A stretch of 37,819 nucleotides of DNA from Anaerolineae bacterium (GCA_041549915.1 JBFEPU010000003.1:1-37819); one strand, 5' to 3'; positions 2,912 to 37,819 are shown, counted from the first letter of the stretch. Program-made: numbers and translations. The notes: generated by a model from the letters alone, not told the origin.

Positions 2912-3370
2912 ATGGCGCTCTATGTGCGCGCGCTGACAAATGCGGAGCAGAACCAACTGCAGGTTTGGTTGACATGCAATGATCCCGTGATGAAGCACCG
3001 AGCACGGGTTGTGCTTCTTTCCAGCGAGGGATATCGTGTACCAGAGATTGGTTCCCTTGTTGAGGCGCACCCGGCCAATCTGCGCAAGTGGATTCATCGT
3101 TTCAACGAACGGGGATGTGAGGGTCTGCGAACGGTCCACTCCGGCGGTCCCAGGCAACGATTCTCAACACAGCAACGGCAGGAGATTGTGCGCCTGGCTC
3201 AGGCCAACCCGAGGGATCTCGGCCTCCACTTCAGCCGCTGGACGCTACATAAGCTCGCTCGACAAGCCGCGAAACGTGGCATCGTGAACCGCATCAGCCA
3301 CGAGTGTGTGCGCCAGATCCTCAGCGGCGCAAAATGTGACTACAGGAGGAGATTGAGTCCAAGTAGGTGA
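2912..3370 (+). CDS. Stand-alone helix-turn-helix protein resembling the N-terminal DNA-binding part of IS630-family transposases; no DDE catalytic domain
   Basis: RARVVLLSSEG...EIG...RKWIHRFNERGCEGL...SGGPRQRF...P.DLG..FSRWTLHKLA...GIV..ISHECVRQIL matches IS630 ORF-A style HTH regions. RBS GGAGGG precedes the ATG at 2912. Stop overlaps the next start (TGATG at 3368-3372). Confidence 0.8.
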   Translation: MALYVRALTNAEQNQLQVWLTCNDPVMKHRARVVLLSSEGYRVPEIGSLVEAHPANLRKWIHRFNERGCEGLRTVHSGGPRQRFSTQQRQEIVRLAQANPRDLGLHFSRWTLHKLARQAAKRGIVNRISHECVRQILSGAKCDYRRRLSPSR

Positions 3371-4839
3371 TGAGAGTTGCCCTGGTTTCTCCCAAGTGGA
3401 ATAGGAAAGCCAACGACTACCCAGCGCTGGGGTTGGGCTATCTGGCTGCCGTTCTTGAGCGCGATGGGCATCAAGTAAGGATCTTTGACTTTGCCCTCTA
3501 TCCCACTGCGCCTCTGGAAGAGGACGTGCAGCAAGTTTGCACGTTTGACCCGGAAATGATCGGGATCACTGCCATGAGCAGCGTCTATCACAGCGCCATG
3601 CAAACCGCTACTCTACTTAAAGCATACTTGGGAAGGCCGATTGTGATCGGTGGCCCTCATGCCACGGTGTACCCGGAGCGTGTACTCGCAGAGTCGCCGG
3701 TCATTGATTGTGTTGTCCGCGGTGAAGGGGAAGAGACCATCAGGCAATTGGCGAGGGCACTCGACGGCACTGGCAGCAACCTCGGTGCAATCGACGGTCT
3801 GACGTACCGCAAACGAAGCGAGATTGTCTCTAATCCGGATCGGCCGCTCATCCGCGACCTCGACTCGCTACCCTTTCCGGCACGCCACCTGTTCGATCTG
3901 AAACACTATGGATTGCGCACACCTGGGGGGCAGCCAATGGTGACGGTGATGTCCAGTCGGGGCTGTCCCTACAATTGCAGCTACTGCTTCAAGGGGATCG
4001 TGGGTCGCACCTACCGCCAGCGGAGTCCAGGGAACATCATTGCTGAGCTACGGCAAGTCATTGATCAGTATGACGTACGCAACTTTTACTTCATTGATGA
4101 TCTGTTCACAATAGACCGGCACCGACTGAACGCCCTCACAGAACAGCTCGTCGCCGCACGACTGGACATTCGCTGGCAGTGCTTGGGGCGTGTGGACCGT
4201 GTGGATGCGGAGGTCTTGCGCAAGATGTACGCTGCTGGTTGCCGTCGTATCCACTACGGCATCGAGTCTGGCAACCAACAGATCCTGGACGGAGTCGGAA
4301 AAGGAATCAAACTGGAGCAAGTTCGGCAGGCGGTTCGCTGGACACAAGAGGCCGGCATTGAGGTCAAGGGCTACTTCATGTTGGGCCTGCCTGGCGACAC
4401 GGAGGAGACACTGCAGCAGACCATAGATCTGGCCACTGAGCTGGATTTGGATGAAACCATGTTCAGCCTCACCACGCCGTTTCCGGGCACACGCCTGTGG
4501 GACGAATTGGTCAAGAAAAAGCCGGGGACAGAGTACAATCAGGACTTTGCCCGCGCCTACTACTATGGCAACCCCGATGAGGAAGTCACCCCTTTCCTCA
4601 ACGTCTCTGACGTTCCGGACGACGTCCTCGAAGAGTGGATGCAGCGGGCGCAGCAGTCCAATGCTGAACGCAAAGCCAAGGGCATATACCAGCAGGCCTT
4701 TGGGCGATCGTTGGGACCGATCATGTGGCGAATCTCACGTTTTGAGCCGCTACGGGCGCTGGCTCGACGCTTGCTGCGTGTGGGATTCTTCAAGCGCTTT
4801 TCCAGCCTCCGGGCTGGGGTGGTTAAGACATGGTCCTGA
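3370..4839 (+). CDS. Cobalamin (B12)-binding-domain radical SAM enzyme (class B methyltransferase-like)
   Basis: N-terminal B12-binding-like region (PALGLGYLAAVL, IVIGGPHAT, VVRGEGEET); SSRGCPYNCSYC (CxxxCxxC); FIDDLF; GIESG; FMLGLPGDT; PFPGT. Confidence 0.93.
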   Translation: MRVALVSPKWNRKANDYPALGLGYLAAVLERDGHQVRIFDFALYPTAPLEEDVQQVCTFDPEMIGITAMSSVYHSAMQTATLLKAYLGRPIVIGGPHATVYPERVLAESPVIDCVVRGEGEETIRQLARALDGTGSNLGAIDGLTYRKRSEIVSNPDRPLIRDLDSLPFPARHLFDLKHYGLRTPGGQPMVTVMSSRGCPYNCSYCFKGIVGRTYRQRSPGNIIAELRQVIDQYDVRNFYFIDDLFTIDRHRLNALTEQLVAARLDIRWQCLGRVDRVDAEVLRKMYAAGCRRIHYGIESGNQQILDGVGKGIKLEQVRQAVRWTQEAGIEVKGYFMLGLPGDTEETLQQTIDLATELDLDETMFSLTTPFPGTRLWDELVKKKPGTEYNQDFARAYYYGNPDEEVTPFLNVSDVPDDVLEEWMQRAQQSNAERKAKGIYQQAFGRSLGPIMWRISRFEPLRALARRLLRVGFFKRFSSLRAGVVKTWS

Positions 4840-5831
4840 GCAGGGTTACGCGTCGGGCGCAGCGGTATCGAGCTCGCGCCGCTTCCCTCACAAAGTGGCT
4901 TTCCTATGTGAGCGGACGTACCAGATTGCCGACCTACCCGGATCGGATGTACCTGGAATGCACCAATGTGTGCAATCTGGGATGTGTGATGTGTCCCAAC
5001 GGCTTGGGGTTGCTGACGCGCTCCAAGGGGTTCATGGATTATTCTCTTTTCACGCAGATTGTGGACGAGATGGCTCCCCACGTGCAGACGACAACCCTGC
5101 ATATCTGGGGCGAGCCGCTTCTGCATCCTCGAATCTATGACATGATTGCTCACTGTCGTAGTCAGGGCCTGATCAGCGAAATCTCCACGAATGCGACACT
5201 CCTGACCGAAGAGCGCAGTCTTGAGATACTGGACGCGGGTCTCGGCGCCATCTACCTCTGCCTGGATGGGGCGACTCCAGAGACCTACGAGCGCGTTAGG
5301 CGCAGGGCCGATTTCGAGGAGACCCAGGAGAATATCCGCCGTTTTGCGGAGTTGAAGAGCAAGCGCACTCATGGGCCACGGGTCAGTGTACAGATCATCA
5401 ATATCAGACCGACTGCTCCGGAGATCGAGCAGTTCAAGCGTGCTTGGAGCATTCCAGGCGTGGATCGCGTTCATGTCAAGGCATTCGACTCCTGGGGTGG
5501 CCAGGTGGAGCAAATAAACGAGCTGCGCAGTGAGGGCAACGGCGTGGCGGTACCAGAGGAGCGCTACCACTGTCCAAACTTGTGGTACCATGTCCACATC
5601 TACTGGGATGGAACGCTGGTCTGCTGTGACCGTGATTTCAACGCACTGAGTCCACTCGGCAACGTCCAAGATGGCGTGATGAAAGCCTGGAATGGCCCTG
5701 GGATGGTAGAACTGCGTCGCAGACACCTTCAGGGCTCGCTTGATAAAGTGCTGCCGTGCAGCAACTGCGCAGAGTGGAGTTGGTGGAAGCCATCGCCGTT
5801 CTCATCCCACGGCAACGCTCCCCAGCGCTGA
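4830..5831 (+). CDS. Radical SAM enzyme with a C-terminal SPASM/Twitch auxiliary Fe-S domain
   Basis: CNLGCVMC motif; WGEPLLHP; ISTNATLL; C-terminal CPNLWYH...DGTLVCC...LGNV...PCSNC. Confidence 0.92.
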   Translation: MVLSRVTRRAQRYRARAASLTKWLSYVSGRTRLPTYPDRMYLECTNVCNLGCVMCPNGLGLLTRSKGFMDYSLFTQIVDEMAPHVQTTTLHIWGEPLLHPRIYDMIAHCRSQGLISEISTNATLLTEERSLEILDAGLGAIYLCLDGATPETYERVRRRADFEETQENIRRFAELKSKRTHGPRVSVQIINIRPTAPEIEQFKRAWSIPGVDRVHVKAFDSWGGQVEQINELRSEGNGVAVPEERYHCPNLWYHVHIYWDGTLVCCDRDFNALSPLGNVQDGVMKAWNGPGMVELRRRHLQGSLDKVLPCSNCAEWSWWKPSPFSSHGNAPQR

Positions 5832-5843
5832 GAGGATTCGCAT

Positions 5844-7478
5844 ATGGCGCTGGGTGGGGCAGAAGCCTCTCGTCTGCCGGGCGCGCCTGCCCGTGCTGGT
5901 CTCTCCCGGATCACCCTCTCCCAAATCAACGACGGTGCCAGAGGCATTTTTCGCGCTCTGTCAAAGTCGGCCAGTCAGGAGAACAGCGCAGCTGGCGCTG
6001 ATGGGGAAGGCACAACGGGATGGAGACTTGCGCTCATTGTGCTGAGCGCGAGCCTCCTGCGCTTTGTGGGGCTGGGCAAAGAGAGCATTTGGCTTGATGA
6101 GGCGACAAGTCTCGTCATTGCCCGCATGAACCTGCCATCAGTCGTCGCCTGGGCGGCCGGAGATATCCACCCACCTCTCTATTACCTCACTTTGCACTTC
6201 TGGCTTGTGTTAGGAGACAGCGAGTTCGCCGTCCGTGCGCTTTCGGCTGTGCTGGGCATTGTTGCCATTGTGGCCACCTACGCGCTGGCCAACGAACTTT
6301 TCGGCGGCCGTGTTGGCTTGCTTGCAGCAGCGCTGCTTGCACTGGCTCCGCTTCATATCTGGTATTCCCAGCAGGCGCGCATGTACGTCATGGTGACTGT
6401 ACTCAGCGTGCTGGCGAGCTATCTCTTGTTGCTGGCCCTGCGCAGGCAGCAGACGAGCTACTGGCTGGCCTTTGTGTTGACCACCGTGCTGGCTCTATAC
6501 ACGCATTACTATGCCCTGTTTGCCTGGCTTTTCCAGGGTGTTTTTGCTGTCTACTGGCTATGGAGCAACCGATCCAACATGTGGCGCAGATGGCTCGCGG
6601 CGCAAGCGGCGGTCGCCGTGCTGTTCACCCCCTGGCTGCCGGTCCTCTATCACCAGGTGAGCACAGGCGGTGGTGGCTGGGTGGAAAAGTCCATCGGTAG
6701 GCCGGCGCCGTACGCTCTGGTTGACACCTGGCTTTACTTCAGCATCGGTCTGGACAGTGGGCTCTACCCAGTGCTCTTGCGCCGTGCAGCCTATCTGCTG
6801 TTCGCCACCTGTCTTCTGGCCGGGATACTCAGCCTGCGCCGCGCAGGTACGGGCCATGGGGTCACCCAACCCAAGCGACAGCGAGAAGGAGTGCTGTTCT
6901 GCATTGTGAATGGTGCCCTGCCGGTCCTCACCGTTTGGGTGCTGTCACAGGTGAAGCCGATGTACTCCGTGCGCTACCTGCTGGTGTTCTTACCACTGTA
7001 CTGCATCCTGGTGGCCCGGGGCATCGACGGCCTCAAGTGGGATCGAGTAGGTATCGCGGTCGCCCTGTTTCTGACGCTGACACTGCTGGTCGGCAACTGG
7101 AATGCCTGGCGTTTGGAGCAGAACGCGGACTGGCGCGGTGTGACTTTGCACGTCTTGGCTCACTCCCAGCCAAGGGATGTGGTGCTGTTCTCACCACGTT
7201 GGAATGAAAAGCCCTTTGAGTACTATAACCGAGGTCGTGTTGACACCAACATGGACCTACCGATTCCCGTCACTATGGATGCGGCACAAAGGGTCGTCGA
7301 AGACATCGCCCAGAGATATGAACGCGTGTGGTTGGTTTGGACCAGCGGGCACTACAGCGACCCAGATGGCACAGTCAAGCAGATCCTTGAGAGTCGCTAC
7401 GGGATTGTACAGGAAAGCAGCTTTCGAGGTGTCGATCGCCTGATCCTCTATGATCTGAGAGTGGCGGGGGAGAGCTAA
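5844..7478 (+). CDS. GT-C fold membrane glycosyltransferase (ArnT/PMT-like); exact start uncertain
   Basis: LRF..LGKESIWLDEA, HPPLYY, RALSA, PLHIWYSQQARMY, YTHYY; multiple TM helices and a soluble C-terminal domain. Confidence 0.9.
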   Translation: MALGGAEASRLPGAPARAGLSRITLSQINDGARGIFRALSKSASQENSAAGADGEGTTGWRLALIVLSASLLRFVGLGKESIWLDEATSLVIARMNLPSVVAWAAGDIHPPLYYLTLHFWLVLGDSEFAVRALSAVLGIVAIVATYALANELFGGRVGLLAAALLALAPLHIWYSQQARMYVMVTVLSVLASYLLLLALRRQQTSYWLAFVLTTVLALYTHYYALFAWLFQGVFAVYWLWSNRSNMWRRWLAAQAAVAVLFTPWLPVLYHQVSTGGGGWVEKSIGRPAPYALVDTWLYFSIGLDSGLYPVLLRRAAYLLFATCLLAGILSLRRAGTGHGVTQPKRQREGVLFCIVNGALPVLTVWVLSQVKPMYSVRYLLVFLPLYCILVARGIDGLKWDRVGIAVALFLTLTLLVGNWNAWRLEQNADWRGVTLHVLAHSQPRDVVLFSPRWNEKPFEYYNRGRVDTNMDLPIPVTMDAAQRVVEDIAQRYERVWLVWTSGHYSDPDGTVKQILESRYGIVQESSFRGVDRLILYDLRVAGES

Positions 7479-7483
7479 CGGAC

Positions 7484-9046
7484 GTGTCAGATCTCGTGGC
7501 ACAGCTCAGAGAAAAGAATGGTACAGCAGCCCTAGTGCTGATCGTCGCGCTTGCGGCGCTGCTGAGGTTCTACTCTCTGGCGGCAGAAAGCCTGTGGTTC
7601 GACGAGACCTATAGTGTCTGGGTGGCCAGACATCCCGTGGCCTGGCACATCGCCCTCAGCACGCAGCGGATCTTTCCACCGTTGTACTACCTGTGTCTGC
7701 ATTTCTGGCTGGGGCTGGGGAGTTCCGACTTTGTCGTACGCTCGTTGTCCGTGTGGATTGGGTTGGGATCCATCGTAGCTGTCTACGGCCTGGCGAAGCA
7801 ACTGTTTGACGCACGCGTAGGTCTGCTCAGTGCACTGCTGCTGGCGATCTCACCTCTACATATCTGGTACTCTCAAGAAGCTCGCATGTACATTCTGGTA
7901 GCGACCCTTGGGCTTTGCTCTGCTTACTTTATGTTATGCGCCTTGCGCCAAGGTAGGCTCTGGCACTGGGTGGCCTATGTATTGAGCACAGCCGCCCTAA
8001 TGAACACGCACTACTTTGCGGTCTTTCTGGTGCCTTTCCAGAACGCCTATGTGCTCTACTTGCTTCTGCGAAAGCAGATCCAACTCGGTGTTTTGCGGCA
8101 CTGGCTCGTGAGCCAGGGCGCGGTTGCTCTGCTGTCTGTTGTGGGCCTGGCAGGCATATTCAGTGCAGAATCCGGCTACTGGTGGGGGCTTCTGGATACC
8201 TGGCATGGGGCACCAACTGTTGCTGACCTGCTCGGTGTCATGTTCTCGTTCAGCCTGGGTACAACAGTTCAGGGGCGATGGATCTACTGGGGTGGGCTCT
8301 TTATCTTCGGTCTCTGTGTTCTGGCAAGCTGCATCTCCATCGGACGCCGCCGAGCGCTACTGCCCGCGGATCGGGGGCTTGCATTCGCATTGCTCTATTT
8401 GGCAGTACCCATTGGCACAGTCTTTGCGCTATCGCAATTCAGGTCGTTCTGGGTTCTGCGGTACATCTTTCCCTTTCTGCCACCGTACTGTATCATCGTT
8501 GCGAGAGGCATATCCAACCTGTGGCGCCTCGGTGAGGCGCAATCTGGCACCGGCCTGGGAGACGGCGAGTCCCAGGATCCTTCAAGAAGGGCAGCCACGC
8601 AAACGGCTGGCAGGGCTCTGGCCATAGTTCTCCTGGCGGCCATTGTACTGACTTCAACGTGGCCGATCGCGAACATCTATCGCTACGAACACAAAGAGAA
8701 CTGGCGCTCGGCGGTCACATACCTCAGTGCCCAGGAGCAACCCAGCGATTTGATCCTCTTGGTGGACGAGGATATCTGGCTGCCATTCGAGCACTACTAC
8801 GACGGTTCCACCCGGCGCATAGGAGTGAGCCGAGTGGTCACCGACCGGGATCTTCTGGCAGCGCGCGTGGGCACGGTGCTGCCCCACCATGGCCGCATGT
8901 GGCTGGTGCTCAGCCATACCGACAACTTCTTGCTCAAGGACTATCTGACGGCCTCTCGATGCACGGAATTGGTGTCAGAGAAGCACTTTACTGGCATAGA
9001 GGTTGACCTGTTCAACATCCAGCTCACGGCTGCCGATTGTGGTTAA
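7484..9046 (+). CDS. GT-C fold membrane glycosyltransferase (ArnT/PMT-like), paralog of 5844-7478
   Basis: LRFYSLAAESLWFDET, FPPLYY, PLHIWYSQEARMY, NTHYF, ENWR; GTG start. Confidence 0.9.
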   Translation: MSDLVAQLREKNGTAALVLIVALAALLRFYSLAAESLWFDETYSVWVARHPVAWHIALSTQRIFPPLYYLCLHFWLGLGSSDFVVRSLSVWIGLGSIVAVYGLAKQLFDARVGLLSALLLAISPLHIWYSQEARMYILVATLGLCSAYFMLCALRQGRLWHWVAYVLSTAALMNTHYFAVFLVPFQNAYVLYLLLRKQIQLGVLRHWLVSQGAVALLSVVGLAGIFSAESGYWWGLLDTWHGAPTVADLLGVMFSFSLGTTVQGRWIYWGGLFIFGLCVLASCISIGRRRALLPADRGLAFALLYLAVPIGTVFALSQFRSFWVLRYIFPFLPPYCIIVARGISNLWRLGEAQSGTGLGDGESQDPSRRAATQTAGRALAIVLLAAIVLTSTWPIANIYRYEHKENWRSAVTYLSAQEQPSDLILLVDEDIWLPFEHYYDGSTRRIGVSRVVTDRDLLAARVGTVLPHHGRMWLVLSHTDNFLLKDYLTASRCTELVSEKHFTGIEVDLFNIQLTAADCG

Positions 9047-9050
9047 CGGG

Positions 9051-10996: not shown

Positions 10997-11010
10997 TTGG
11001 AGATCCGTCG

Positions 11011-27352: not shown

Positions 27353-27390
27353 TCACTGGTCCAGGCACCCAGTGGCTGGTGAACTCGACC

Positions 27391-30303: not shown

Positions 30304-31355
30304 CTCACGCAGCCGGAGCAGTGAACAAGCGAGGCACAGTCCCCTACGAGGACGAGTTTGCAGGCAGAAAGGTGCTGATTACCGGTGGACTGGGCTTTAT
30401 CGGCAGCAATCTCGCCATGCGCCTGGTTGAGCTGGGCGCCGATGTGCTGCTTGTGGACTCACTAATACCGGAGTACGGGGGAAATCTGTTCAACATCCAG
30501 CCTGTCAAGGACAGATTGCGGGTCAACATCGCAGATGTCCGCGACGTGAATGGCATGAACTACCTGGTGCGCGGTCATGACTACCTGTTCAATCTCGCTG
30601 GCCAGGTCAGCCACATCGACAGCATGCATGATCCCTACACAGACCTTGAGATCAACTGTCGCGCCCAGCTATCCATACTTGAGGCGTGCCGCTACAACAA
30701 TCCTGACATCAAGGTTGTCCATGCCAGCACTCGACAGGTCTATGGGGCACCAGAGTACTTGCCTGTGGATGAGAAGCATCTACTGCGCCCTACGGATGTC
30801 AATGGCATTAACAAGATGGCCGGCGAGTGGTACCACATACTGTACAACAATGTGTATGGTGTCCGGGCCGTGTCACTGCGCCTTACCAACACGTATGGCC
30901 CGCGGCTATTGATGAAGCACAGCCGACAGGGTTTTGTGGCATGGTTCATCCGTCTGGCAATCAGCAACGAAGAGATACAGCTCTATGGTGACGGGCGGCA
31001 GGTGCGAGATCTGAATTACGTCGATGATGTCATTGAGGCGATGCTTTTGGCTGCCGTCTACGACGGGGCCAATGGTCGCATTTTTAACCTGGGGAACACC
31101 CCTCCGGTTAGTTTGCTGGAGTTCGTCCACACCCTGCTTGAGATCTGTCAGGATTTCGGCGTGGGCGAAGGAGGCTATCGTCTGGTGCCATTTCCGCCAG
31201 ACAAGAAGCGTATTGACATCGGCGACTATTACGCCGACTATAGCAAGATCCAGAAAACCTTGGGTTGGAGACCGACGATCCCGCTCAAGGAGGGGTTGAA
31301 GCGCACGGTCGAATACTACGTAGAGCATCATGATCAATACTGGGAGAACCCGTGA
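30300..31355 (+). CDS. NAD-dependent epimerase/dehydratase family protein with an atypical active site (NxxxK)
   Basis: ATG at 30300 (ATGA overlap); ITGGLGFIGSN, NLAGQ, ASTRQVYG, PTDVNGINK, LRLTNTYGPR, GDGRQVRD. Confidence 0.92.
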   Translation: MTHAAGAVNKRGTVPYEDEFAGRKVLITGGLGFIGSNLAMRLVELGADVLLVDSLIPEYGGNLFNIQPVKDRLRVNIADVRDVNGMNYLVRGHDYLFNLAGQVSHIDSMHDPYTDLEINCRAQLSILEACRYNNPDIKVVHASTRQVYGAPEYLPVDEKHLLRPTDVNGINKMAGEWYHILYNNVYGVRAVSLRLTNTYGPRLLMKHSRQGFVAWFIRLAISNEEIQLYGDGRQVRDLNYVDDVIEAMLLAAVYDGANGRIFNLGNTPPVSLLEFVHTLLEICQDFGVGEGGYRLVPFPPDKKRIDIGDYYADYSKIQKTLGWRPTIPLKEGLKRTVEYYVEHHDQYWENP

Positions 31356-32962
31356 CAGGAGCTTTGCACGACACCGCGCGTTTTCCTCCTGTGCTGATCC
31401 TGATTCTCATCATTGCGCTGGCAGCCTTCTTGCGCTTGCACAATCTGCTCCCAATAGAGAGAGGGTTACAGTTCCTGCAGGACTATGACGAGGGGGTTTG
31501 GGACAGCACAGCGCAACTCATGCTCCAGGGTTACGTGCCCTATCGCGATTTCTTCGCCACGTTGCCTCCCGTCGGCATCTACTTGCTGGCAGCCGTTCTG
31601 CGTCTGGTCAACCAGCCGTGGGGAAACGGCGTGGGCTTTATGGCCACCCGCTATGCCTCTGTTGCCTATGGTTTAGGCACCATAGCGGTAGTCTTCCTGA
31701 TAGGACGCAAGCTGGGGGGGTGGCCAACGGGTCTGCTCGCTGCGGCTTTGCTCAGCGTCGATGGAATGGTCATCGGCATGGATCGCCGTGTCATGCTGGA
31801 GCCACCTCTCAACCTGTTTTCCGCTTTGGCAGTGTTGACCTACTACTTCGCTTGCGAGCGCCCTCACGCTGGTAGACAGGGGCAACGCCTGGCGGCCCTG
31901 GCGGGTTTCCTGAGCGCGATTGCAGCTTTGTCCAAGACACCCGGGCTGCTTGTGGCTTTGGCCCTGCTCACCGTCTCGCTGCTGCGCCGGAGATTTCGCG
32001 AAGCGGCGTTGATTGCTGCGGGCTTTGGACTGAGCTGGATACTGCTGAGCGCCTATTTCCTGCTTCGCTGCCCGGACGATTTTCTGAAACAGGTCTATTT
32101 TTTTCAGCTGTTGCGTCCTGCGGATGGCATCACTCGCTGGAGCACAAGGCTCTATGACATCTGGCACTATGCCTCAGCTTGGCACACAGTGCGGGTAGGA
32201 TTGGCAGGGGCCCTGTTGCTGGGACTGGTTGCCCTGTGGCGCTCGGAAGCCCGGCGGTGGCTGGTCATACTGGCCTGGACGGGCTATACACTGGGAATGA
32301 TACTCCTCAACAAGTCGTATTGGCCACAGTACTATGTGCAACTGGCTGTGCCACTGAGCCTGCTCGGCGGCGGACTGATCGACAGGGGAGCATGGCCTGA
32401 GTGGTCATTTGCTGGCGCAACAGTACGCCTGCGCCAGCTTCCCCTTGGGAGTGTCGTATTCGTGGCGATCCTGCTTACGGGCCTGATTGGTGGGGCAGCC
32501 GCAAGTCAATACACTGGAATGAAGAGCATGCTGGCACGGACTTCTCCAGCCTACACTGAGGTAGCAGACTACCTGAGACACAACAGCACCACCGCTGACA
32601 GGATTCTCGTCTTCGAGCCAAACTATACGTTCCTGGCCTCGCGGCCGCCGGCTGGAGTGCAGGAGGCGCGTTTCCTTGTTGACTCGTATGGCGAGATGTT
32701 GTACACCAACCTAGGGATTGAGGGGAGATCACTGCCGGCACTGGTGACGTCTGTGCTGAGCAGAGAAGAGAGCGAGTTGCAGCAAACCTTCTGGCGTGAG
32801 CCAGCACAAGAGCAGGTATTGGCTGCCTTTGAGCAAGCACAGTACGTAATCGTTGACGGACGGGCGCGCTACCAACTGCGGCCGGAGACACTGGCTGCAA
32901 TTCAAGCGCTCTCCGCCGAGCTGTTCGCTGCTGGACCTGCTAGCTTGAGGGCACGGCCGTGA
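31352..32962 (+). CDS. GT-C fold membrane glycosyltransferase (ArnT/PMT-like), paralog of 23949-25595
   Basis: QDYDEGVW, PYRDFFATLPP, DRRVMLEPP, FEPNYTFL, DSYGEMLY; GTGA overlap. Confidence 0.9.
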   Translation: MTGALHDTARFPPVLILILIIALAAFLRLHNLLPIERGLQFLQDYDEGVWDSTAQLMLQGYVPYRDFFATLPPVGIYLLAAVLRLVNQPWGNGVGFMATRYASVAYGLGTIAVVFLIGRKLGGWPTGLLAAALLSVDGMVIGMDRRVMLEPPLNLFSALAVLTYYFACERPHAGRQGQRLAALAGFLSAIAALSKTPGLLVALALLTVSLLRRRFREAALIAAGFGLSWILLSAYFLLRCPDDFLKQVYFFQLLRPADGITRWSTRLYDIWHYASAWHTVRVGLAGALLLGLVALWRSEARRWLVILAWTGYTLGMILLNKSYWPQYYVQLAVPLSLLGGGLIDRGAWPEWSFAGATVRLRQLPLGSVVFVAILLTGLIGGAAASQYTGMKSMLARTSPAYTEVADYLRHNSTTADRILVFEPNYTFLASRPPAGVQEARFLVDSYGEMLYTNLGIEGRSLPALVTSVLSREESELQQTFWREPAQEQVLAAFEQAQYVIVDGRARYQLRPETLAAIQALSAELFAAGPASLRARP

Positions 32963-33007
32963 AAGCATTCCAGGCTTGTGCGTCCAGACCGCAGTGGAGG
33001 CCAGAGC

Positions 33008-33850
33008 ATGGGTGAGAGAGTTGTCGTCGTGATGCCAGCTTACAACGCAGCCAAAACGTTGGAACGCACCTATAACGATCTTCCCAAAGATGTGGTGGAT
33101 AAGGTCATCCTCGTGGACGACGTAAGCCAGGACGAGACGGTTGAAATCGCGCGGCAGCTCGGCCTGGAGGTCATCGTCCACATCCAGAACAAAGGCTACG
33201 GCGGCAACCAGAAGACCTGCTATATCAAAGCCCTGGAGGATGTGGCAGACATTGTTGTGATGCTGCACCCAGATTATCAGTACGACTCCACGCTGGTGCC
33301 CGAACTGATCCGCCCCATTCAGGAGGGCGAAGCTGACATGGTCTTGGGTTCCCGTTTTCTGACTGGCGGCACTCTGGCAGGGGGCATGCCGCTGTACAAG
33401 TACGTTTCCAACCGCTTCCTGACCCTCGCCGAGAATATCGCCTTGGGCCAACACCTGTCAGAGTTCCATACAGGGTTTCGTGCCTACAGCAGGCAAATGC
33501 TGGAGACAATCCCCTTTCTGCTGAACTCTGACAACTTTGTGTTTGACACGGAAGTAATCGCACAGGCAGTGGCCTTTGGTTTCCGCATCGCGGAGATTGG
33601 CGTGCCGACGCGCTATTTCGAAGAGGCCTCTTCGGTGAACTTTAAGAACAGCGTGATCTATGGCTTGAGCACACTGGCCACGATGGCACGCTATCTGCTG
33701 GCCAAGTGGGACATCGCGAGCTACCCCCAGTTCAAGAAGACGCTACCGCAGATCGTCAGCCGCTATCACCTGCCGCAGATTCTGGGTGAACAGTCCCCAG
33801 ACACACGGAAATCGGTTGACGAACTTGCACAGGGAGGCACGGAGCCTTGA
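33008..33850 (+). CDS. GT2 glycosyltransferase, DPM1-like
   Basis: ATG at 33008 with GGAGG RBS; VVMPAYNA, LVDDVSQD, NKGYGGNQK, MLHPDYQY (HxD in place of DxD), LGSRF, EFHTGFRAY. Confidence 0.92.
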   Translation: MGERVVVVMPAYNAAKTLERTYNDLPKDVVDKVILVDDVSQDETVEIARQLGLEVIVHIQNKGYGGNQKTCYIKALEDVADIVVMLHPDYQYDSTLVPELIRPIQEGEADMVLGSRFLTGGTLAGGMPLYKYVSNRFLTLAENIALGQHLSEFHTGFRAYSRQMLETIPFLLNSDNFVFDTEVIAQAVAFGFRIAEIGVPTRYFEEASSVNFKNSVIYGLSTLATMARYLLAKWDIASYPQFKKTLPQIVSRYHLPQILGEQSPDTRKSVDELAQGGTEP

Positions 33851-35541
33851 CAGCGGCTCTTCTTACAAGAACGACTGATTCAGGCCGCCTGCGGGGCGGT
33901 CTGTTTCTGATAGGAATGTTGCTCAGTGCCGCATTGTTGCTCTTCTGCCGGCTCGATGACGCGTACCTGTGGCAGGACGAAGCGGAGACAGCGATTATCT
34001 CCCGCAACCTGCTGACCTATGGACTGCCGTTGTCCACCGATGGCATGAACTGGGTTCAGCAAGCACCGCAAAAGTTCATCGAGTTCACCGACGACTATAT
34101 CTGGATCTACCACTCCTGGCTGCAGTACGGAGTGACCGCCGCGTCGTTCGCCCTCTTTGGTGCTACTACTTTCGCTGCTCGGCTGCCTTTCGTGCTCGTG
34201 GGCTTGCTGACCATATACTACTTCCATGGCTTTGTATCGCGGTGGATGGCGGACACGCGCATCGCTCGTGTGGCGACTTTGCTCTTGGTATTCTGCATAC
34301 CCTTTGTGCTACTGTTGCGGCAGGCCCGCTACTATGCCTTGGCAGCGTTCTTCACCTTGCTGACAGTGGACGCCTACCTGCGCCTCACCAATGAGGGGAC
34401 CCGACCTGACCTCCAGTCAGGGGAAAAGTGGGCCGTCCCCTACTTCGTGCTGTCGGCGGCTTTGTTGTATCACAGCCACTACGGAGCTTTCTTCCCCACG
34501 ATGATAACCCTGGCGCTGCACTTTGTCCTGTCACGCCCCGCACACAGACCGCTGCGCCGCTTCCTCATGGCCTTCTTGCTCGTCGCCATGTTTGCGCTGC
34601 CCTGGGCCAGATTGATGCGCGTCCAGAATCGTGGTGAACCCTTTCAGATGGATCGCTTCCTGTCACACATTGGCCAGCACTCTCTGTATATCACCGCTTG
34701 GCTATTCCCCCTAGTACTGGTTCCATTTCTGCTCATCGCGCTCATCCGCCCGTCTCTTGGCCGCGATACGGCGCACTACTCTCAAGGAGACCGACTCGAG
34801 CTGAGCCCTGGGCAAACCACATTCTGCCGGTTGGTTGGTCTGGAGATCCTCTTGACCATCCTGCCCCTTTCCGCCTCTGCCGCCTTTGACTGGGCGTTTT
34901 TTCGTTATCTGGCACACCTGATTCCATTGCTGTTGATCTTGCTGGCGGTCGTCGTGGTCTGGTTCATGGAGCGCTCGGCTCTGATTGGATACACTCTGCT
35001 CATCGTCCTTGTGGTGAGCAACGCTCTACATGTCCTCCCATATAGACTGCCTGCCGTGAAAGGAATCGACTGGGAGGAACTGCGGCCCGGCTCACCGCCC
35101 TTCCAGGCTCTTGATGACGTATGGGCGAAGGCAGGCCGCTTCCGCTCCGATGTCTGGATGTACGCTCAGGAATTGAGCCACTCCTACGAGGGGCCCAACG
35201 AGGGTTTGGTGAAATACCTTTCGGTACATGCCCAACCAGGACAGACGGTTGTGGTGAACTATGAGGATCTGCCCCTGATGTTCTACACAGAACTGCGGGT
35301 ATTGGGTGGGCTTTCGGGCCGAGGTCTGGCCGACGATGCCCAACCGGATTGGGTGATCGACCGCAAACATGGACCCTACCGTGACCGGATAGCAACTATC
35401 GTGGCCTCGGGTTCGTACGAGCGCGTGGAAATACCCTACCCCGACATTCGTTGGGAGAATCGCCCGCAGCCTGGCCAGCATCACTACCTGACTGTCCGAG
35501 GTGAAGAGAATGTAGTGCTCTACAGGAAGCGAGGAGGCTGA
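33847..35541 (+). CDS. GT-C fold membrane glycosyltransferase (ArnT/PMT-like)
   Basis: YLWQDEAETA, FGATTFAARLP, RQARYY; TTGA overlap. Confidence 0.9.
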   Translation: MTAALLTRTTDSGRLRGGLFLIGMLLSAALLLFCRLDDAYLWQDEAETAIISRNLLTYGLPLSTDGMNWVQQAPQKFIEFTDDYIWIYHSWLQYGVTAASFALFGATTFAARLPFVLVGLLTIYYFHGFVSRWMADTRIARVATLLLVFCIPFVLLLRQARYYALAAFFTLLTVDAYLRLTNEGTRPDLQSGEKWAVPYFVLSAALLYHSHYGAFFPTMITLALHFVLSRPAHRPLRRFLMAFLLVAMFALPWARLMRVQNRGEPFQMDRFLSHIGQHSLYITAWLFPLVLVPFLLIALIRPSLGRDTAHYSQGDRLELSPGQTTFCRLVGLEILLTILPLSASAAFDWAFFRYLAHLIPLLLILLAVVVVWFMERSALIGYTLLIVLVVSNALHVLPYRLPAVKGIDWEELRPGSPPFQALDDVWAKAGRFRSDVWMYAQELSHSYEGPNEGLVKYLSVHAQPGQTVVVNYEDLPLMFYTELRVLGGLSGRGLADDAQPDWVIDRKHGPYRDRIATIVASGSYERVEIPYPDIRWENRPQPGQHHYLTVRGEENVVLYRKRGG

Positions 35542-35542
35542 T

Positions 35543-37186
35543 TTGTCACAGCGCTTGCTGCCACGCAGAAGCCTGGGGGCCTGGCTCGAGTCCAGATTCG
35601 TCTGGCTGCTCCTGATTGCAGCCACCGTGCTCCTGCTGGCACGCCTGGACAACATCTACCTATGGCAGGATGAGGCGGAGACAGCCCTGCTCTCGCAAAG
35701 GCTGCGCACATATGGCCTGCCACTGGCCTTTGACGGTCGCAACCTGATCCGCCAGGCACCCCAAGATGTGCAATACACCTCAGACTATGTGTGGGTGTAC
35801 CATCCCTGGCTGCCGTTCTTCTTGACAGCCGTCTCGTTTTCCCTCTTCGGTGCAACCACATTCGCCGCACGCCTGCCCTATGCGTTGGCTGGGCTAGCAA
35901 CGGTTCTCCTCCTGTACCACAGCACGCGCCGTCACTTTCGCGACCAGCGGGTGGCGATACTGGCTTCGACGTTTCTGTTGCTCTGCGTACCATTCCTCCT
36001 TCACGCGCGGCAGTGCAAGTACTTCCCTTTTGCGGCCCTCTTCACCGTAGCCATGCTGGATGCCTACCTGCTCCTGCTCCAAAAGGAGGAAGCACGCCGA
36101 GCGCTGCCCTACTTCGTACTAGCAGGCTTCTGCCTGTTTCAGAGCAACTTTGGCGCATTCGTCCCCATGATAGCGGCGCTGGGGGCACACTTTCTCCTCA
36201 GCCGCCCGCAATGGGATGACGTGAGACGCATAGGACTGGCTGTGGGGATACTGGCGCTCTTGGTCATACCCTGGGCCATCTACCTTCAGACCTGGGCCCG
36301 CGGCCGCTTTGCCTTCGATGTCTATCGCTTCGTTGGACACCTGGTCCACTATGCAGTGTATATCACTGGGTGGGTCTTGCCCTTGCCGCTGTTGCTCGCG
36401 TTTGCCTATTGGTATGCCAGGGCTCGCATGCGCCAAGTACTTGAGCCTCGCCAAGTCTCTGCCATCCATCTGTACACTCTGGCAGTCGCGCTCACGCTCC
36501 TCTTCCTGTCAGCAACGTTCATCTGGATGTACTTCAGCTATATTGTGCAACTCGTTCCCCTGCTGGTGGTCATCCTGGCATTGACAGTGGTCAGAGTCTT
36601 GGAGCGTTCTCGGCCGCTTGGTACTGTGCTGATTGCCCTGCTGGTCACAACGAATGTCCTGCATGCCTTCCCGTACGCGGTGCCTGCCACCAGAGAGTTC
36701 AAATGGGCTTCCCTAGCGCCCCGCCCCTACCTGGCTGAGACCGATGCACTGATCGCTTCCGCAGGAACAATTCGCTCGGACTTGGCAGACTACTTCTATG
36801 AACTCCTGCATGACTACGATGGCCCGAATGAGGGCATCGTGCTGTTCCTGCGGGAACACGCCGCACCAGGCGACATGGTACTGGCTAACTACGGTGAACT
36901 GCCGATCGCTTTCTACACCGGGCTCGATATCGCGGGTGGTTTGTCAGCATACCGCGTCGAAAGGTTCGAACAGGCCAGGTGGGTCATCAACCGCCAGGAT
37001 GGCCCCTACCGTGACGAAATGGCGCGAATCATCGCGCAAGGGAACTACGAGGCGATTGATATTCCCTATCCTGATTTGCCTTGGGGCAACCGACCAGTGC
37101 CGGAATACCACAAGTTTGCCACGGTGCACGATGCGCCCAACGTAATCATCCACCGTCTCTTAGACGGAACGGGGAATTCGGAATGA
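35543..37186 (+). CDS. GT-C fold membrane glycosyltransferase, tandem paralog of 33847-35541
   Basis: YLWQDEAETA, FGATTFAARLP, RQCKYF, YDGPNEG, IPYPD..W.NRP shared with the upstream gene. Confidence 0.9.
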   Translation: MSQRLLPRRSLGAWLESRFVWLLLIAATVLLLARLDNIYLWQDEAETALLSQRLRTYGLPLAFDGRNLIRQAPQDVQYTSDYVWVYHPWLPFFLTAVSFSLFGATTFAARLPYALAGLATVLLLYHSTRRHFRDQRVAILASTFLLLCVPFLLHARQCKYFPFAALFTVAMLDAYLLLLQKEEARRALPYFVLAGFCLFQSNFGAFVPMIAALGAHFLLSRPQWDDVRRIGLAVGILALLVIPWAIYLQTWARGRFAFDVYRFVGHLVHYAVYITGWVLPLPLLLAFAYWYARARMRQVLEPRQVSAIHLYTLAVALTLLFLSATFIWMYFSYIVQLVPLLVVILALTVVRVLERSRPLGTVLIALLVTTNVLHAFPYAVPATREFKWASLAPRPYLAETDALIASAGTIRSDLADYFYELLHDYDGPNEGIVLFLREHAAPGDMVLANYGELPIAFYTGLDIAGGLSAYRVERFEQARWVINRQDGPYRDEMARIIAQGNYEAIDIPYPDLPWGNRPVPEYHKFATVHDAPNVIIHRLLDGTGNSE

Positions 37187-37819
37187 CAAAGCAACCAAAG
37201 GCCCCCCTCGGCAGCGCAGTTCGCAACCCTGAACTCTGGTTTCTGCTGGCTATTGTCTTGGCCTCACTGATCCTACGAGTTGCCGTCGTCCGCGTGGATC
37301 GCATTGTGCGCTGGGATGAACCAGACTATTTGATCGCCGGGCGCAACCTCTTCACGGGCAAGGGCTACGCCGTAACAACCCGGCCCGAAGTGCACTATGC
37401 ACCGCTGTTCCCGGTGGTGACGGGCCTGCTGTATCCGCTGACCCACAACATGAAGCTCAACAGTGACATCGCTTTCGTCCTGTTTGGCACGCTCACGCTG
37501 CTGCCATTCTACTGGCTCGCCAGACGTCTCTTCGGAGCGCGCATCGGGTTCATGGCCACCACCTTCCTGACCCTTTTCCCCGCGCTGACCGCAGCTGTGA
37601 TCTTCTGGGGCACCATGCTCGAGCCACTCTACCTCTTTCTCCTTTATGCCGCCTTGTGCGCCGTCTGGCTCGCCTGGGAGAAGAAGAGCCTGGCGGCCCA
37701 TGTGTCTGCTGGCGCACTGTTCGGCCTGGCATATCTGACCAAGCCCGAAGCCATCGTATACCTGGTTCTGATGTTTGCGCTGCTGATTGTGGGCAATCTA
37801 TGGCGGCGTTCACTGCTCA
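37183..37819 (+). CDS. GT-C fold membrane glycosyltransferase, 3'-truncated by the window edge (absent from the ORF track); paralog of 21023-22681
   Basis: Translated by hand from the ATG at 37183 (ATGA overlap): MTKQPKAPLG...RIVRWDEPDYLIAGRNLFTGKGY...HYAPLFP...FWGTMLEPLY...LFGLAYLTKPEAIVY; no stop before the window end. Confidence 0.9.
   Translation, partial: MTKQPKAPLGSAVRNPELWFLLAIVLASLILRVAVVRVDRIVRWDEPDYLIAGRNLFTGKGYAVTTRPEVHYAPLFPVVTGLLYPLTHNMKLNSDIAFVLFGTLTLLPFYWLARRLFGARIGFMATTFLTLFPALTAAVIFWGTMLEPLYLFLLYAALCAVWLAWEKKSLAAHVSAGALFGLAYLTKPEAIVYLVLMFALLIVGNLWRRSLL

Follow-up and report, generated by a model that had tools for sequence, protein, structure and literature searches.

A co-directional run of GT-C glycosyltransferase genes in an Anaerolineales genome and its probable place in a larger envelope-glycan locus

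Gene content of the window

The DNA analysed here (the window) is one whole contig, C3, of 37,819 bp, from an uncultured sediment bacterium of the Chloroflexota (an Anaerolineales MAG, genome G000). Its end falls inside a gene, g31. The genes are listed in Table 1. Twenty-nine of them, g03 to g31 (2876-37818), are all on the + strand and closely packed: the 28 junctions between them are all of 61 bp or less, with a median of 0, and the genes overlap at 14. This packing is operon-like and agrees with the tight co-directional run described in the original prediction. The window contains 13 GT-C genes, five GT2 genes similar to those of polyprenyl-phosphate-sugar synthases and one GT2 gene of another type (g23). 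Also present are a candidate ArnE/F-like flippase, a DUF2304 protein similar to GacJ, three radical-SAM genes and sugar-nucleotide genes. The evidence for transcription is weak and limited to short contigs, obtained from two RNA libraries of a single study, which may correspond to DNA carry-over.

The tight run is opened by g03. Its NCBIfam IS630 match (62.6 bits) is under the cut-off of 100, and a counterpart with 72% identity is found at the same place in G007, a relative from another genus. The position of g02 at the start of the locus is conserved in G007, and its product may be a regulator. Upstream of the locus there is a gene for a 1681 amino acid Big_13 protein.

Table 1. Genes of the window, with their assignments and the evidence used.
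Gene	Position	Strand	Assignment	Evidence
g02	329..2617	+	Sensor histidine kinase (GAF-PAS-HisKA-HATPase)	Pfam; syntenic G007 orthologue, 66% identity
g03	2876..3370	+	Small HTH protein, like N-terminal HTH of IS630 transposases	Pfam HTH_32
g04	3367..4839	+	B12-binding radical SAM enzyme, HpnJ/BchE-like	Pfam; all NCBIfam matches under cut-offs
g05	4830..5831	+	Radical SAM/SPASM enzyme	Pfam, NCBIfam
g06	5844..7478	+	GT-C (PMT_2), g07 paralogue	PMT_2 51.4 bits; 35% identity to g07; DE motif
g07	7484..9046	+	GT-C (PMT_2)	PMT_2 47.5 bits; DE motif
g08	9003..10643	+	GT-C (weak PMT_2)	24.2/28.2 bits; DN motif
g09	10490..10996	+	SMR/EamA-type small membrane protein, ArnE/ArnF-like candidate lipid-P-sugar flippase	Pfam EamA, Multi_Drug_Res
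g10	11011..12945	+	GT-C, YfhO/PTPS_related/DUF6311 type	AlphaFold2 model, Foldseek
g11	12942..14618	+	GT-C (PMT_2)	47.0 bits; DE motif
g12	14618..16132	+	GT-C, ArnT/PMT-like	PMT_2 74.8, PMT 61.3 bits; ArnT 5ezm
g13	16142..16870	+	GT2, polyprenyl-P-sugar synthase-like	Pfam; NCBIfam AglJ, Dol-P-hexose transferase, ArnC
g14	16883..17926	+	Sugar-1-phosphate nucleotidyltransferase	Pfam NTP_transferase, NCBIfam
g15	17923..18852	+	NAD-dependent sugar epimerase/dehydratase, GalE-like	Pfam; NCBIfam galE 171.5 bits (cut-off 262)
g16	18854..19684	+	GT2, PpgS/DPMS-like polyprenyl-P-(N-acetyl)hexosamine synthase candidate	NCBIfam PpgS 91.2 bits (best)
g17	19677..20582	+	Polysaccharide deacetylase (NodB fold + DUF3473)	Pfam; NCBIfam XrtA-system deacetylase 230 bits (cut-off 276)
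g18	20605..21033	+	DUF2304 small membrane protein (GacJ/Rv3632 family)	Pfam 77.5 bits
g19	20975..22681	+	GT-C (PMT_2), g31 paralogue	42.6 bits; 41% identity to g31
g20	22688..23959	+	Polyprenyl-P-sugar-synthase-like GT2 fused to SAM methyltransferase	Pfam, NCBIfam
g21	23949..25595	+	GT-C (PMT/PMT_2), g27 paralogue	Pfam; 44% identity to g27; no counterpart in G007 locus
g22	25602..27317	+	GT-C (PMT_2)	74.4 bits; no counterpart in G007 locus
g23	27379..28410	+	Membrane GT2, C-terminal hydrophobic helices	Pfam; NCBIfam best EpsD, MftF, PgaC; PDB 6yv7 E 1e-14
g24	28435..29604	+	Radical SAM/SPASM enzyme	Pfam, NCBIfam
g25	29629..30303	+	GT2, DPM1-like	NCBIfam AglJ 116 bits, Dol-P-hexose transferase 112 bits
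g26	30246..31355	+	NDP-sugar 4,6-dehydratase/epimerase family	Pfam; NCBIfam dTDP-glucose dehydratase 153.7 bits (cut-off 365)
g27	31352..32962	+	GT-C (PMT/PMT_2)	Pfam; no counterpart in G007 locus
g28	32978..33850	+	GT2, DPM1-like	Pfam; NCBIfam AglJ, PpgS, Dol-P-hexose transferase
g29	33847..35541	+	GT-C, g30 paralogue	Identity to g30; PMT_2 24.6 bits (six-frame); DE motif
g30	35543..37186	+	GT-C (PMT_2)	42.1 bits
g31	37081..37819	+	GT-C (PMT_2), truncated by contig end, runs on in frame into C70	42.9 bits

GT-C transferases

All 13 GT-C candidates are supported, by Pfam, by paralogy or by one AlphaFold2 model. Ten of them (g06, g07, g11, g12, g19, g21, g22, g27, g30 and g31) have hmmscan matches to PMT_2 or PMT over the gathering score. 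The PMT_2 match of g08 reaches 24.2 bits by hmmscan and 28.2 bits, over the cut-off, in a six-frame search. No hmmscan match is found for g29, whose PMT_2 score in the six-frame search (24.6 bits) is just under the cut-off; it shares 43-44% identity with g30 across 543-545 amino acids. The weakest candidate is g10, which has no PMT_2 match and only a sub-threshold match to PTPS_related. We have modelled its fold (pLDDT 91.7), and a Foldseek comparison with the PDB gives 27 matches with E <= 0.001, all of them to GT-C enzymes (STT3, AftD, AglB, DPY19, ArnT, PglB). The likeness to STT3 and AftD is at the fold level only, with a TM of about 0.5 and 10-15% identity. Homologues of g10 bear PF09586, PF10131 or PF19830. 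For g12 there is a sequence match to ArnT (5ezm, E 1.5e-21); the other 11 candidates are assigned by sequence.

An acidic D-E, D-N or D-Q motif is present in all 13 proteins within about 20 residues after the first hydrophobic helix, and we take it to be the catalytic motif, as in PMT and ArnT. A crude Kyte-Doolittle scan gives 5-9 hydrophobic segments for each protein, and the 12 full-length ones have 504-644 amino acids. The original count of at least 13 GT-C-like genes is therefore upheld by Pfam, paralogy, the motif and the g10 model; it had been suggested that the fold of these membrane proteins be checked, and both the HMM matches and the model of g10 support GT-C.

Four of these proteins (g12, g21, g22 and g27) match PMT (PF02366), and very large proteins, secreted or Ig-like, are encoded beside the locus or within it: the 1681 amino acid Big_13 protein and a 1956 amino acid CBM96/esterase/dockerin protein. 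These features would fit a protein O-glycosylation battery, in which the GT-Cs would modify secreted or surface proteins in the manner of PMT, TMTC or actinobacterial Pmt and would differ from one another in their protein targets or elongation steps. We consider this quite unlikely. Protein mannosyltransferases of the PMT and TMTC groups are characterised by MIR and TPR domains. The 12 full-length GT-Cs have no Pfam matches outside GT-C-type families, so MIR and TPR domains are undetected in them. Among solved structures, g12 is closest to ArnT and not to a PMT. As described below, moreover, g16-g19 are arranged as in polymer-decorating modules and the run is linked to Wzx/Wzy genes.

GT2 enzymes, flippase candidate and the g16-g19 module

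Five of the six GT2 enzymes (g13, g16, g20, g25 and g28) look like polyprenyl-P-sugar synthases in their sequences. Their best NCBIfam matches are AglJ, Dol-P-hexose transferase, ArnC or PpgS, with scores which are all far under the equivalog cut-offs. We have compared two of them with the PDB: The best solved relatives are lipid-P-sugar synthases, DPMS (5mlz, E 5.5e-14) and also ArnC for g25, DPMS (5mlz, E 1.6e-14) and also GtrB for g16. Since the best NCBIfam and PDB relatives are lipid-P-sugar synthases, the five DPM1-like enzymes originally counted are correct. The sixth one, g23, is of a different type. With EpsD, MftF and PgaC as its best NCBIfam matches and a PDB match to 6yv7, it is not DPM1-like; it may be a lipid- or glycan-directed transferase.

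The only flippase candidate in the window is g09, compared with five putative donors. Its NCBIfam scores are 55.4 bits for ArnF (cut-off 99) and 38.1 bits for ArnE (cut-off 92). Translation probably starts close to residue 44, where its alignment to G007 begins.

The g17 deacetylase gene lies between a synthase and a GT-C gene, an ArnD-like position. The next gene, g18, is the only DUF2304 gene of the genome and codes for a likely activator of g16. GacJ is described as a DUF2304 protein which forms a complex with GacI and stimulates it, and its homologue Rv3632 is described as stimulating PpgS. When the g16-g18 complex is predicted, a median score of 0.43 is obtained, versus 0.00 for the best of three controls; at least 97% of the contacts agree between runs and the partner pLDDT is at least 74. 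In the benchmark, whose counts are only approximate here because our own alignments were used, 58 of 80 solved complexes reach the mark, as do 2 of 110 mismatched pairs; with scores of 0.60 or less, just 7 of the 80 solved complexes and both mismatches do so. The predicted complex thus lends weak support to the g16-g18 pairing.

Continuation of the locus beyond the window

The original prediction stressed that no Wzx/Wzy machinery was visible, nor any GT4, priming, Wzz or ABC gene. Within the window this is right: no Pfam matches to GT4, Bac_transf, MraY/WecA-type, Wzx, Wzy, Wzz or ABC2 are found in the 30 + strand ORFs scanned (the short 5'-cut ORF g01 was left out). For the locus, the statement on Wzx/Wzy does not hold. 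The whole contig ends inside g31, so families absent from the window tell nothing about the locus. C3 is joined to C70rc by an exact 21-bp end overlap, across which the g31 frame continues. C70 brings three more GT-Cs, two of PMT_2 type and a g10 paralogue, and the total is at least 16. Other exact end overlaps, of 141 bp each, join C340rc to C3 and C16rc to C253rc.

The Wzx/Wzy/chain-length set is located on C16. It includes Wzx (Polysacc_synt_3, 289.5 bits), Wzy_C (58.1 bits) and a Wzz-like gene (weak Wzz match, 25.2 bits; GNVR, 19.7 bits), together with five GT4 genes, a truncated sixth and a YfhO GT-C. The order C70, C438, C16 in G000 is one of synteny only: End overlaps were looked for and none was found. 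By the C70 join and this synteny, a conventional Wzx/Wzy set lies downstream, and its absence from the window is an artefact of the contig end. The original prediction had itself named such downstream genes among the findings that would count against it. A gene for the 1956 amino acid secreted protein is present inside the G007 locus, with fragments on C68, C438 and C16 of G000.

Priming phosphoglycosyltransferases (Bac_transf, Glycos_transf_4) are absent from C3, C70 and C16, and also from the G007 locus up to the contig end (G007:C12 403-482.8 kb). Elsewhere in G000, on other contigs, there are six Bac_transf and three MraY/WecA-type matches. The whole genome has 7 MOP/Wzx-type and 38 PMT_2 matches, so the proximity of GT-C and Wzx genes could be due to a general clustering of envelope genes. 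The GT-C half and the Wzx half may be separate transcription units.

Conservation in related genomes

In G007, 27 of the 31 window genes are found in the same order, with 56-89% identity. Every gene of this locus is on the + strand, to Wzx and beyond; the last GT-C is separated from Wzx by about 12 kb and the secreted protein gene. In five of nine family relatives, one contig carries the orthologues of both g12 and Wzx, on one strand and at a distance of 33-43 kb. In four of five more distant genomes, which belong to other families, the Wzx orthologue likewise shares its contig and strand with a g10-type GT-C, at a distance of 7-36 kb. Altogether the GT-C run and Wzx are linked in 9 of the 14 relatives examined, which include several families; in the other five, mostly fragmented assemblies, the two gene sets are on separate contigs.

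This same-strand linkage, conserved across families, argues against a self-standing line. In such a line, a complex glycan would be assembled for the most part by the GT-C battery, outside the membrane and starting from a lipid or glycolipid primer, as in mycobacterial LM/LAM, arabinan or the ER-lumen ALG steps, and the Wzx/Wzy neighbours would make a different polymer. Moreover, no primer-specific enzyme has been identified and polymerising activity is indicated for none of these GT-Cs. On the other hand, 16 GT-Cs for 5 donor synthases are well beyond any known decoration cassette, g23 could make a lipid-linked primer, and the locus lacks a priming enzyme. The GT-C set differs between genera, with 16 in G000 and 11 in G007, but both retain the Wzx half, and the GT-C expansion is both genome-wide and lineage-wide. 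On balance, we find a self-standing line unlikely.

The run may also be divided into blocks of a GT2 with one to three GT-Cs. Old paralogue pairs share just 35-44% identity, and modules are gained or lost across genera: g21, g22 and g27 are absent in G007, and G010 has five g10-type copies in tandem. This might suggest a glycosylation island of independent GT2 and GT-C modules with several unrelated acceptors (peptidoglycan-linked polymer, lipoglycan, EPS, proteins), brought together by duplication and shared regulation and not by a single pathway. Such an island appears very improbable, given the gene order conserved between genera, the operon-like packing and the presence of one flippase candidate and one DUF2304 protein common to the whole run.

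PMT_2-type matches are abundant in all 31 genomes of the class (20-75 per genome): This GT-C expansion is a lineage-wide Chloroflexota trait and no one-off. LpxC is found in none of the ten family genomes, five of which are at least 90% complete, and this rules out lipid A as the acceptor. An ArnT orthologue acting on lipid A has been rejected for this reason.

Comparison with known systems

Several multi-component transmembrane glycosylation systems are known: GtrA/GtrB/GtrII, GacI/GacJ/GacK/GacL of Streptococcus pyogenes, CsbB/GtcA/YfhO and the three-component pentofuranose systems (PMC11127046; 10.1101/180810; PMC8035078). In these systems, the polyprenyl-P-sugar is the product of a GT2. 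A small membrane protein has a flipping or assisting role, and the sugar is then added by a GT-C, outside the membrane, to a polymer of another pathway. The g16, g18 and g19 genes are arranged on the GacI/GacJ/GacL model, with the DUF2304 partner included. Five such GT2s and at least 16 GT-Cs are present in this run, compared with one of each in the known cassettes. No GtrA-family gene is present in the window (the only one of the genome is on C106).

The ArnC/ArnD/ArnE-ArnF/ArnT pathway, which adds L-Ara4N to lipid A, is similar in several features: g12 is an ArnT homologue, g09 is ArnF/ArnE-like, g17 is a NodB-type deacylase in the place of ArnD and the GT2s are ArnC-like. However, LpxC is found in none of the family genomes and all the NCBIfam scores are far under the equivalog cut-offs; these genes are not orthologues.

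To our knowledge, the only bacterial precedent for at least a dozen GT-Cs which elaborate envelope glycans outside the membrane from polyprenyl-P-sugars is the arabinogalactan/LM/LAM system of Corynebacteriales (Emb, Aft, Mpt, PimE; Ppm1; PpgS/Rv3632/Rv3779). Its aminosugar module, PpgS with a DUF2304 protein and a GT-C, resembles g16, g18 and g19. Mycobacterial GT-C genes are dispersed on the chromosome and belong to families GT53, GT85, GT87 and GT89, while those described here are mostly of PMT_2 type (GT83/GT39-like), in one co-directional run beside Wzx/Wzy genes. A DPA-type pentose donor pathway is not seen here. The ER-lumen N-glycan steps (ALG3/9/12/6/8/10 with DPM1/ALG5) likewise use several linkage-specific GT-Cs and at least two lipid-P-sugar donors from DPM1-type GT2s, but they are eukaryotic and make one defined oligosaccharide on Dol-PP, with a final oligosaccharyltransferase.

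Proposed mechanism

These results are best explained by a conserved envelope-glycan supercluster of about 70-75 kb, with the window as its upstream half, in a bacterium without lipid A. We give about even chances to a multi-module system of GT2, flippase and GT-C which would decorate or branch, outside the cytoplasm, an envelope polysaccharide made by the Wzx/Wzy route. Several features count against decoration: the locus has no priming phosphoglycosyltransferase, Wzx lies about 12 kb past the secreted protein gene and the last GT-C in G007, C16 is placed by synteny only, there is one flippase candidate for five putative donors, and 5 of 14 relatives, mostly fragmented assemblies, have the two gene sets on separate contigs.

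Stepwise extracytoplasmic addition from several lipid-P-sugars, as originally proposed, is the most reasonable mechanism, in view of the GT-C folds, the five synthase-like GT2s, the flippase candidate and the GacJ-like activator. The gene content, the GT-C fold, the homology classes, the contig joins and the conserved linkage are results of this analysis; we infer the donors, flipping, acceptor and order of steps as follows. In the cytoplasm, the five DPM1/ArnC/PpgS-like GT2s would charge polyprenyl phosphate with different sugars from nucleotide sugars, which would be made or modified by g14, g15 and g26, perhaps also by the radical-SAM and methyltransferase genes. The g16-g17-g18-g19 module would work on the pattern of PpgS/Rv3632/Rv3779, GacI/GacJ/GacL and ArnC/ArnD/ArnT: a HexNAc-P-lipid synthase aided by the DUF2304 protein, then the deacetylase, then transfer by the GT-C. 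The lipid-P-sugars would be flipped, possibly by g09, and at least 16 GT-Cs would attach them outside the membrane. The most likely acceptor would be the polysaccharide of the co-directional downstream genes (GT4, Wzx, Wzy_C, Wzz-like, YfhO-type GT-C). In that case, the GT-C battery would branch or decorate an exported polymer, and not replace the Wzx/Wzy route.

The original prediction did not recognise this architecture at this scale as a characterised system. We have not found it described in the literature; nevertheless, it is no isolated case, given the expansion throughout the Chloroflexota. In summary, the operon-like GT-C run is uncharacterised and unusually large, and would be a version of known extracytoplasmic glycosylation systems.

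Genes of the run

The window contains 13 GT-C genes, coding for membrane transferases of a kind known to use polyprenyl-phosphate sugars outside the membrane, as the original prediction had claimed. Of the 31 ORFs called on the + strand, all except the short 5'-cut g01 were compared with Pfam, 30 in total. Ten large polytopic proteins are above the PMT_2 or PMT gathering score, and g08 is a borderline PMT_2 case (24.2 bits with hmmscan, 28.2 bits in a six-frame search). g29 has no hmmscan match, but aligns with g30 from end to end at 43–44% identity. The sequence of g12 is matched by that of ArnT (E 1.5e-21). The hardest case is g10, which only has a sub-threshold PTPS_related match in Pfam and no match at E <= 10 among PDB sequences; its homologues are annotated as YfhO, PTPS_related or DUF6311. 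Its AlphaFold2 model (pLDDT 91.7, 40-sequence alignment) has 27 PDB matches at E <= 0.001, and all 27 are GT-C enzymes: STT3, AftD, AglB, DPY19, ArnT, PglB, ALG12, EmbB and AftA. An acidic D-E, D-N or D-Q motif is found directly past the first hydrophobic helix in 13 of the 13 proteins. GT-C gene blocks are also marked by a strongly negative AT skew (-0.17 to -0.21). Four pairs of these paralogues show 35–44% identity and the remainder can barely be aligned: To judge from their sequences, they are old paralogues.

There are six GT2 genes. Five of them (g13, g16, g20, g25 and g28) are DPM1-like, as predicted, while the sixth, g23, had been overlooked. The best NCBIfam matches of the five are lipid-phosphate sugar synthases, which are also the best solved relatives of those tested against PDB; the matches include AglJ, a haloarchaeal Dol-P-hexose transferase, ArnC, PpgS, Pyrococcus DPMS and GtrB. 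On the other hand, hydrophobic helices are present at the C-terminus of g23, and its resemblance is to EpsD, MftF, PgaC and PDB 6yv7, not to lipid-phosphate sugar synthases. The fusion in g20 may provide a methylated lipid-linked sugar donor.

The tight co-directional run described originally is confirmed: All 28 junctions from g03 to g31 are of 61 bp or less (median 0), and 14 overlap. The run reads as repeated blocks, in which a DPM1-like GT2 precedes one to three GT-Cs, as shown in the Table. A scan of positions 2400–22000 gave 6 promoter-like sites (7.3 +/- 2.8 in shuffles) and 23 terminator-like sites (15.4 +/- 3.9 in shuffles). As most of these sites are within T-rich genes for membrane proteins, the scan is uninformative on operon limits. 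Two RNA libraries from one study have 34 and 17 matching contigs (250–600 nt among those listed), covering 26/30 and 16/30 bins of positions 5000–24999, a weak hint that the window genes are transcribed.

The first gene, g03, resembles solely the N-terminal DNA-binding part of IS630 transposases and is 72% identical to a protein at the same position in G007, a genome of another genus in the same family. It may be a domesticated transposase HTH acting as a regulator of the locus. Radical-SAM and SDR enzymes only have sub-threshold NCBIfam matches (HpnJ, BchE, AprD4, NirJ, GalE and RmlB types). Six radical-SAM genes are found across the extended locus: g04, g05, g24 and the three others in the Table. 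The best match of the three B12-binding ones is HpnJ, BchE or AprD4, and the other three are SPASM or SPASM-like; none of the six reaches the NCBIfam cut-off. Unusual C-methylation or deoxygenation of sugars would be candidate reactions for them.

Features of the locus and of related loci (L, sub-loci with local coordinates; C, contigs; G000, the genome containing the window; G010, a genome of the same order)
Feature	Location	Description
Upstream neighbourhood, directly before g02	L008:3662-12367 (G007); C68 (L015), C340 (L016) in G000	Kept in both; OmpR-type response regulator, 1681-aa Ig-like (Big_13) surface protein, TPR protein, BNR/Sortilin-type beta-propeller
g02		Sensor kinase
g03	window 2876-3370	164-aa HTH protein, first gene of run
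g04		B12-binding radical-SAM enzyme
g05, g24		SPASM-type radical-SAM enzymes
g06-g12		GT-C-only block around g09
g09		ArnF/ArnE-like SMR protein (NCBIfam), candidate flippase
g13, g16 -> g19		Block
g14		Sugar-1-P nucleotidyltransferase
Variant near g14 3' end	window 17818	27 bases missing in one contig (depth 7) of DNA run X2; in-frame population variant
g15, g26		SDR epimerase/dehydratases
g17		NodB-type deacetylase with DUF3473
g18		DUF2304 protein, only one in genome
g20	window 22688-23959	DPM1-like GT2 fused to SAM-dependent methyltransferase
g20 -> g21, g22		Block
g25 -> g27		Block
g28 -> g29, g30, g31		Block
G007 downstream, same strand (1)		Remainder of g31-type GT-C
(2)		B12 radical-SAM gene, SDR, hexapeptide acyltransferase, methyltransferase
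(3)	L010:13672-19542; fragments in G000 on C438 (L017) and C16 (L013:16809-18413)	1956-aa secreted protein: CBM96, S9-type esterase/alpha-beta hydrolase, disaggregatase repeats, CarboxypepD_reg, dockerin
(4)		Further B12 radical-SAM gene, methyltransferase
(5)		Wzx, two GT4, Wzz/GNVR-like, GT4, Wzy_C, GT4, radical-SAM, more GT4
(6)	L018:771-1250, 1324-1773; C253 in G000	Split Alg14-like + Alg13-like (Glyco_tran_28_C) pair at distal end; then DegT aminotransferase, GFO/IDH oxidoreductase
Other radical-SAM genes	L012:8647-9981; L013:15348-16802; L013:1971-3158	Extended locus
C16 (G000)		Wzx (Polysacc_synt_3, 289.5 bits); Wzy_C (58.1 bits); Wzz/GNVR protein (weak match); five GT4 genes and a cut sixth; two radical-SAM genes; 842-aa YfhO-family protein (17th GT-C)
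Tandem GT-Cs	G010:C1:92603-102685	Five g10-type (YfhO/PTPS_related-like) copies adjoining g12 orthologue
GT-C/GtrA pair	G000:C106:4977-7257	Best PMT_2 match of genome (88.4 bits) adjoining its only GtrA-family match

The clearest module is g14–g19, with a nucleotidyltransferase, a GalE-like epimerase, a PpgS-like GT2, a deacetylase, a DUF2304 protein and a GT-C. It resembles GacI/GacJ/GacL, with a deacetylase in addition. DUF2304 is the family of GacJ, which, according to a preprint (bioRxiv 10.1101/180810), binds and stimulates the GlcNAc-P-undecaprenol synthase GacI; the same source describes stimulation of PpgS by Rv3632, the M. tuberculosis homologue of GacJ. A complex prediction for g16 and g18 has a median score of 0.43, the best of 3 controls has 0.00. 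The runs concur in at least 97% of contacts, with a partner pLDDT of at least 74. The mark for such scores is attained by 58/80 solved complexes and 2/110 mismatches, and at 0.60 or under by 7 of those 80 complexes and both mismatches; the g16–g18 prediction used its own alignments, and these counts apply to it only roughly. The model lends weak support to a g16–g18 complex. The analogy with ArnC/ArnD/ArnT and PpgS/Rv3779 suggests that this module would attach a de-N-acetylated hexosamine on the outer side of the membrane.

The locus beyond the contig

The window is the whole of contig C3 (37,819 bp), which terminates inside its last gene, g31, a detail that the original prediction had also overlooked. 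The bin has 487 contigs, 3.07 Mb, 60% G+C and 77% completeness. No GT4, priming transferase, Wzx, Wzy, Wzz or ABC-2 family match is found among the 30 window ORFs scanned with Pfam. This absence, a premise of the original prediction, is true of the window, but for GT4, Wzx, Wzy and Wzz it does not extend to the locus. In G007 the locus is on a 483-kb contig, where 27 of the 31 window proteins are matched in the same order with 56–89% identity; g01, g21, g22 and g27 have no match there. The genes continue downstream on the same strand as far as conventional Wzx and Wzy genes. On its own terms, the original prediction would be refuted by such genes directly downstream. The gene for the 1956-aa secreted protein separates the GT-C part of the locus from the Wzx part.

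Counterparts of the G007 proteins are found in our genome, downstream on C70, C438, C16 and C253, upstream on C68 and C340. Exact end overlaps connect C340 (reversed) with C3 (141 bp), C3 with C70 (reversed; 21 bp, g31 in frame across the join) and C16 with C253 (141 bp). We have looked for C68–C340, C70–C438 and C438–C16 overlaps and found none: Their adjacency is given by synteny with G007. Wzx and Wzy are on C16, so the lack of these genes is an assembly artefact. C70 contains two PMT_2/PMT GT-Cs and a 665-aa protein missed by Pfam, 46–48% identical to g10. It adds three GT-Cs, and therefore the continuous C3+C70 run, 48.8 kb long, has 16 GT-C genes.

Near-identical DNA is found in 18 DNA runs, labelled as sediment, marine or plain metagenomes. 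These runs come from 9 studies, and the bin itself may derive from one of them. One window transferase has relatives with 60–71% identity at six public loci, from Anaerolineales, Anaerolineae or Chloroflexota MAGs. Coverage by DNA run X1 is missing from several bins in the 16.3–21.7 kb interval, perhaps owing to strain variation in the g13–g19 module; no contig bridges the gap, so we have not counted it as evidence.

Distribution in related genomes

Orthologues of g12 and Wzx are on one contig and the same strand, 33–43 kb apart, in five of nine family relatives, and on separate contigs in the other four. Among five more distant genomes, which belong to other families of the class, four have a g10-type GT-C and a Wzx orthologue (44–52% identical) on one contig and strand, 7–36 kb apart. 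The persistence of linkage over such distance argues for a functional tie between the GT-C run and Wzx. The GT-C complement is fluid: 16 genes in G000 vs. 11 in G007. Only 9 of the 61 class genomes have the g10 type (E <= 1e-40), and its five tandem copies in G010 show rapid tandem GT-C expansion at the locus.

Our genome has 38 PMT_2 matches (E <= 0.01), 33 of them over the cut-off, with 12 on C3 and 2 on C70. All 31 class genomes of a first sample have 20–75 matches each. In a phylum-wide sample, which includes one flagged unpublished genome inside its range, 59 of 61 genomes have matches, with 0–44 in the 60 genomes other than G000. The lowest counts (0–10) correspond mostly to small genomes of 1.4–2.4 Mb; most larger Chloroflexota genomes have 15–75 PMT_2-type GT-C matches. 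The operon thus shows, in its densest form, a trait general to Chloroflexota. Two papers (PMC6306507, PMC11650866) touch on this trait only through CAZyme tallies, where GT83 is listed with the most abundant or numerous GT families. Our literature search found no study, functional or otherwise, of Chloroflexota GT-C arrays, the supplements may hold per-genome counts.

LpxC was looked for in ten family genomes and found in none. G000 contains one LCP ligase, seven MOP/Wzx-type, six Bac_transf and three MraY/WecA-type matches, all on other contigs. The pair on C106 looks like a separate, classical three-component cassette.

Possible functions of the locus

For the whole locus we prefer, with about even confidence, a battery of GT-Cs which would decorate and branch the Wzx/Wzy product. 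Several points count against decoration: No priming transferase is found in the locus, up to the distal end of the G007 contig; a 12-kb spacer contains the large secreted-protein gene; and there is a single flippase candidate. A self-standing assembly line outside the membrane, as originally predicted, would be an unlikely explanation, with Wzx and Wzy in the same syntenic locus. We consider it still less probable that the locus serves protein O-glycosylation, and an island of independent modules is the least credible of these readings.

As an alternative to decoration, it might be suggested, with considerable doubt, that in Anaerolineales, perhaps in Chloroflexota generally, most of the envelope glycan is built outside the membrane by linkage-specific GT-Cs from at least five polyprenyl-P-sugars, with Wzx/Wzy giving only a primer or a separate polymer. 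If so, bacteria would have a counterpart of the ALG chemistry of the ER lumen and of mycobacterial arabinan/mannan synthesis, coded for at this locus by one operon-like run of 16 GT-Cs. The locus represents no new principle: Known three-component glycosylation systems and mycobacterial wall synthesis follow the same logic, applied here on a larger scale and within one compact run.

Little is known as yet of the cell-envelope chemistry of Chloroflexota, abundant as they are in sediments, sludge and mats. In one family, a Wzx/Wzy core is surrounded by at least 16 GT-C transferases, six radical-SAM enzymes and five lipid-sugar synthases. This packing, with tens of GT-C genes per class genome, points to unusually complex envelope glycans, with most of the assembly outside the membrane. 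As a compact, syntenic gene set, the locus would suit heterologous reconstitution; it is also a natural library of GT-C enzymes, whose linkage specificities probably differ. Its striking gene content could serve as a way into the envelope glycobiology of this phylum, so far unexplored.
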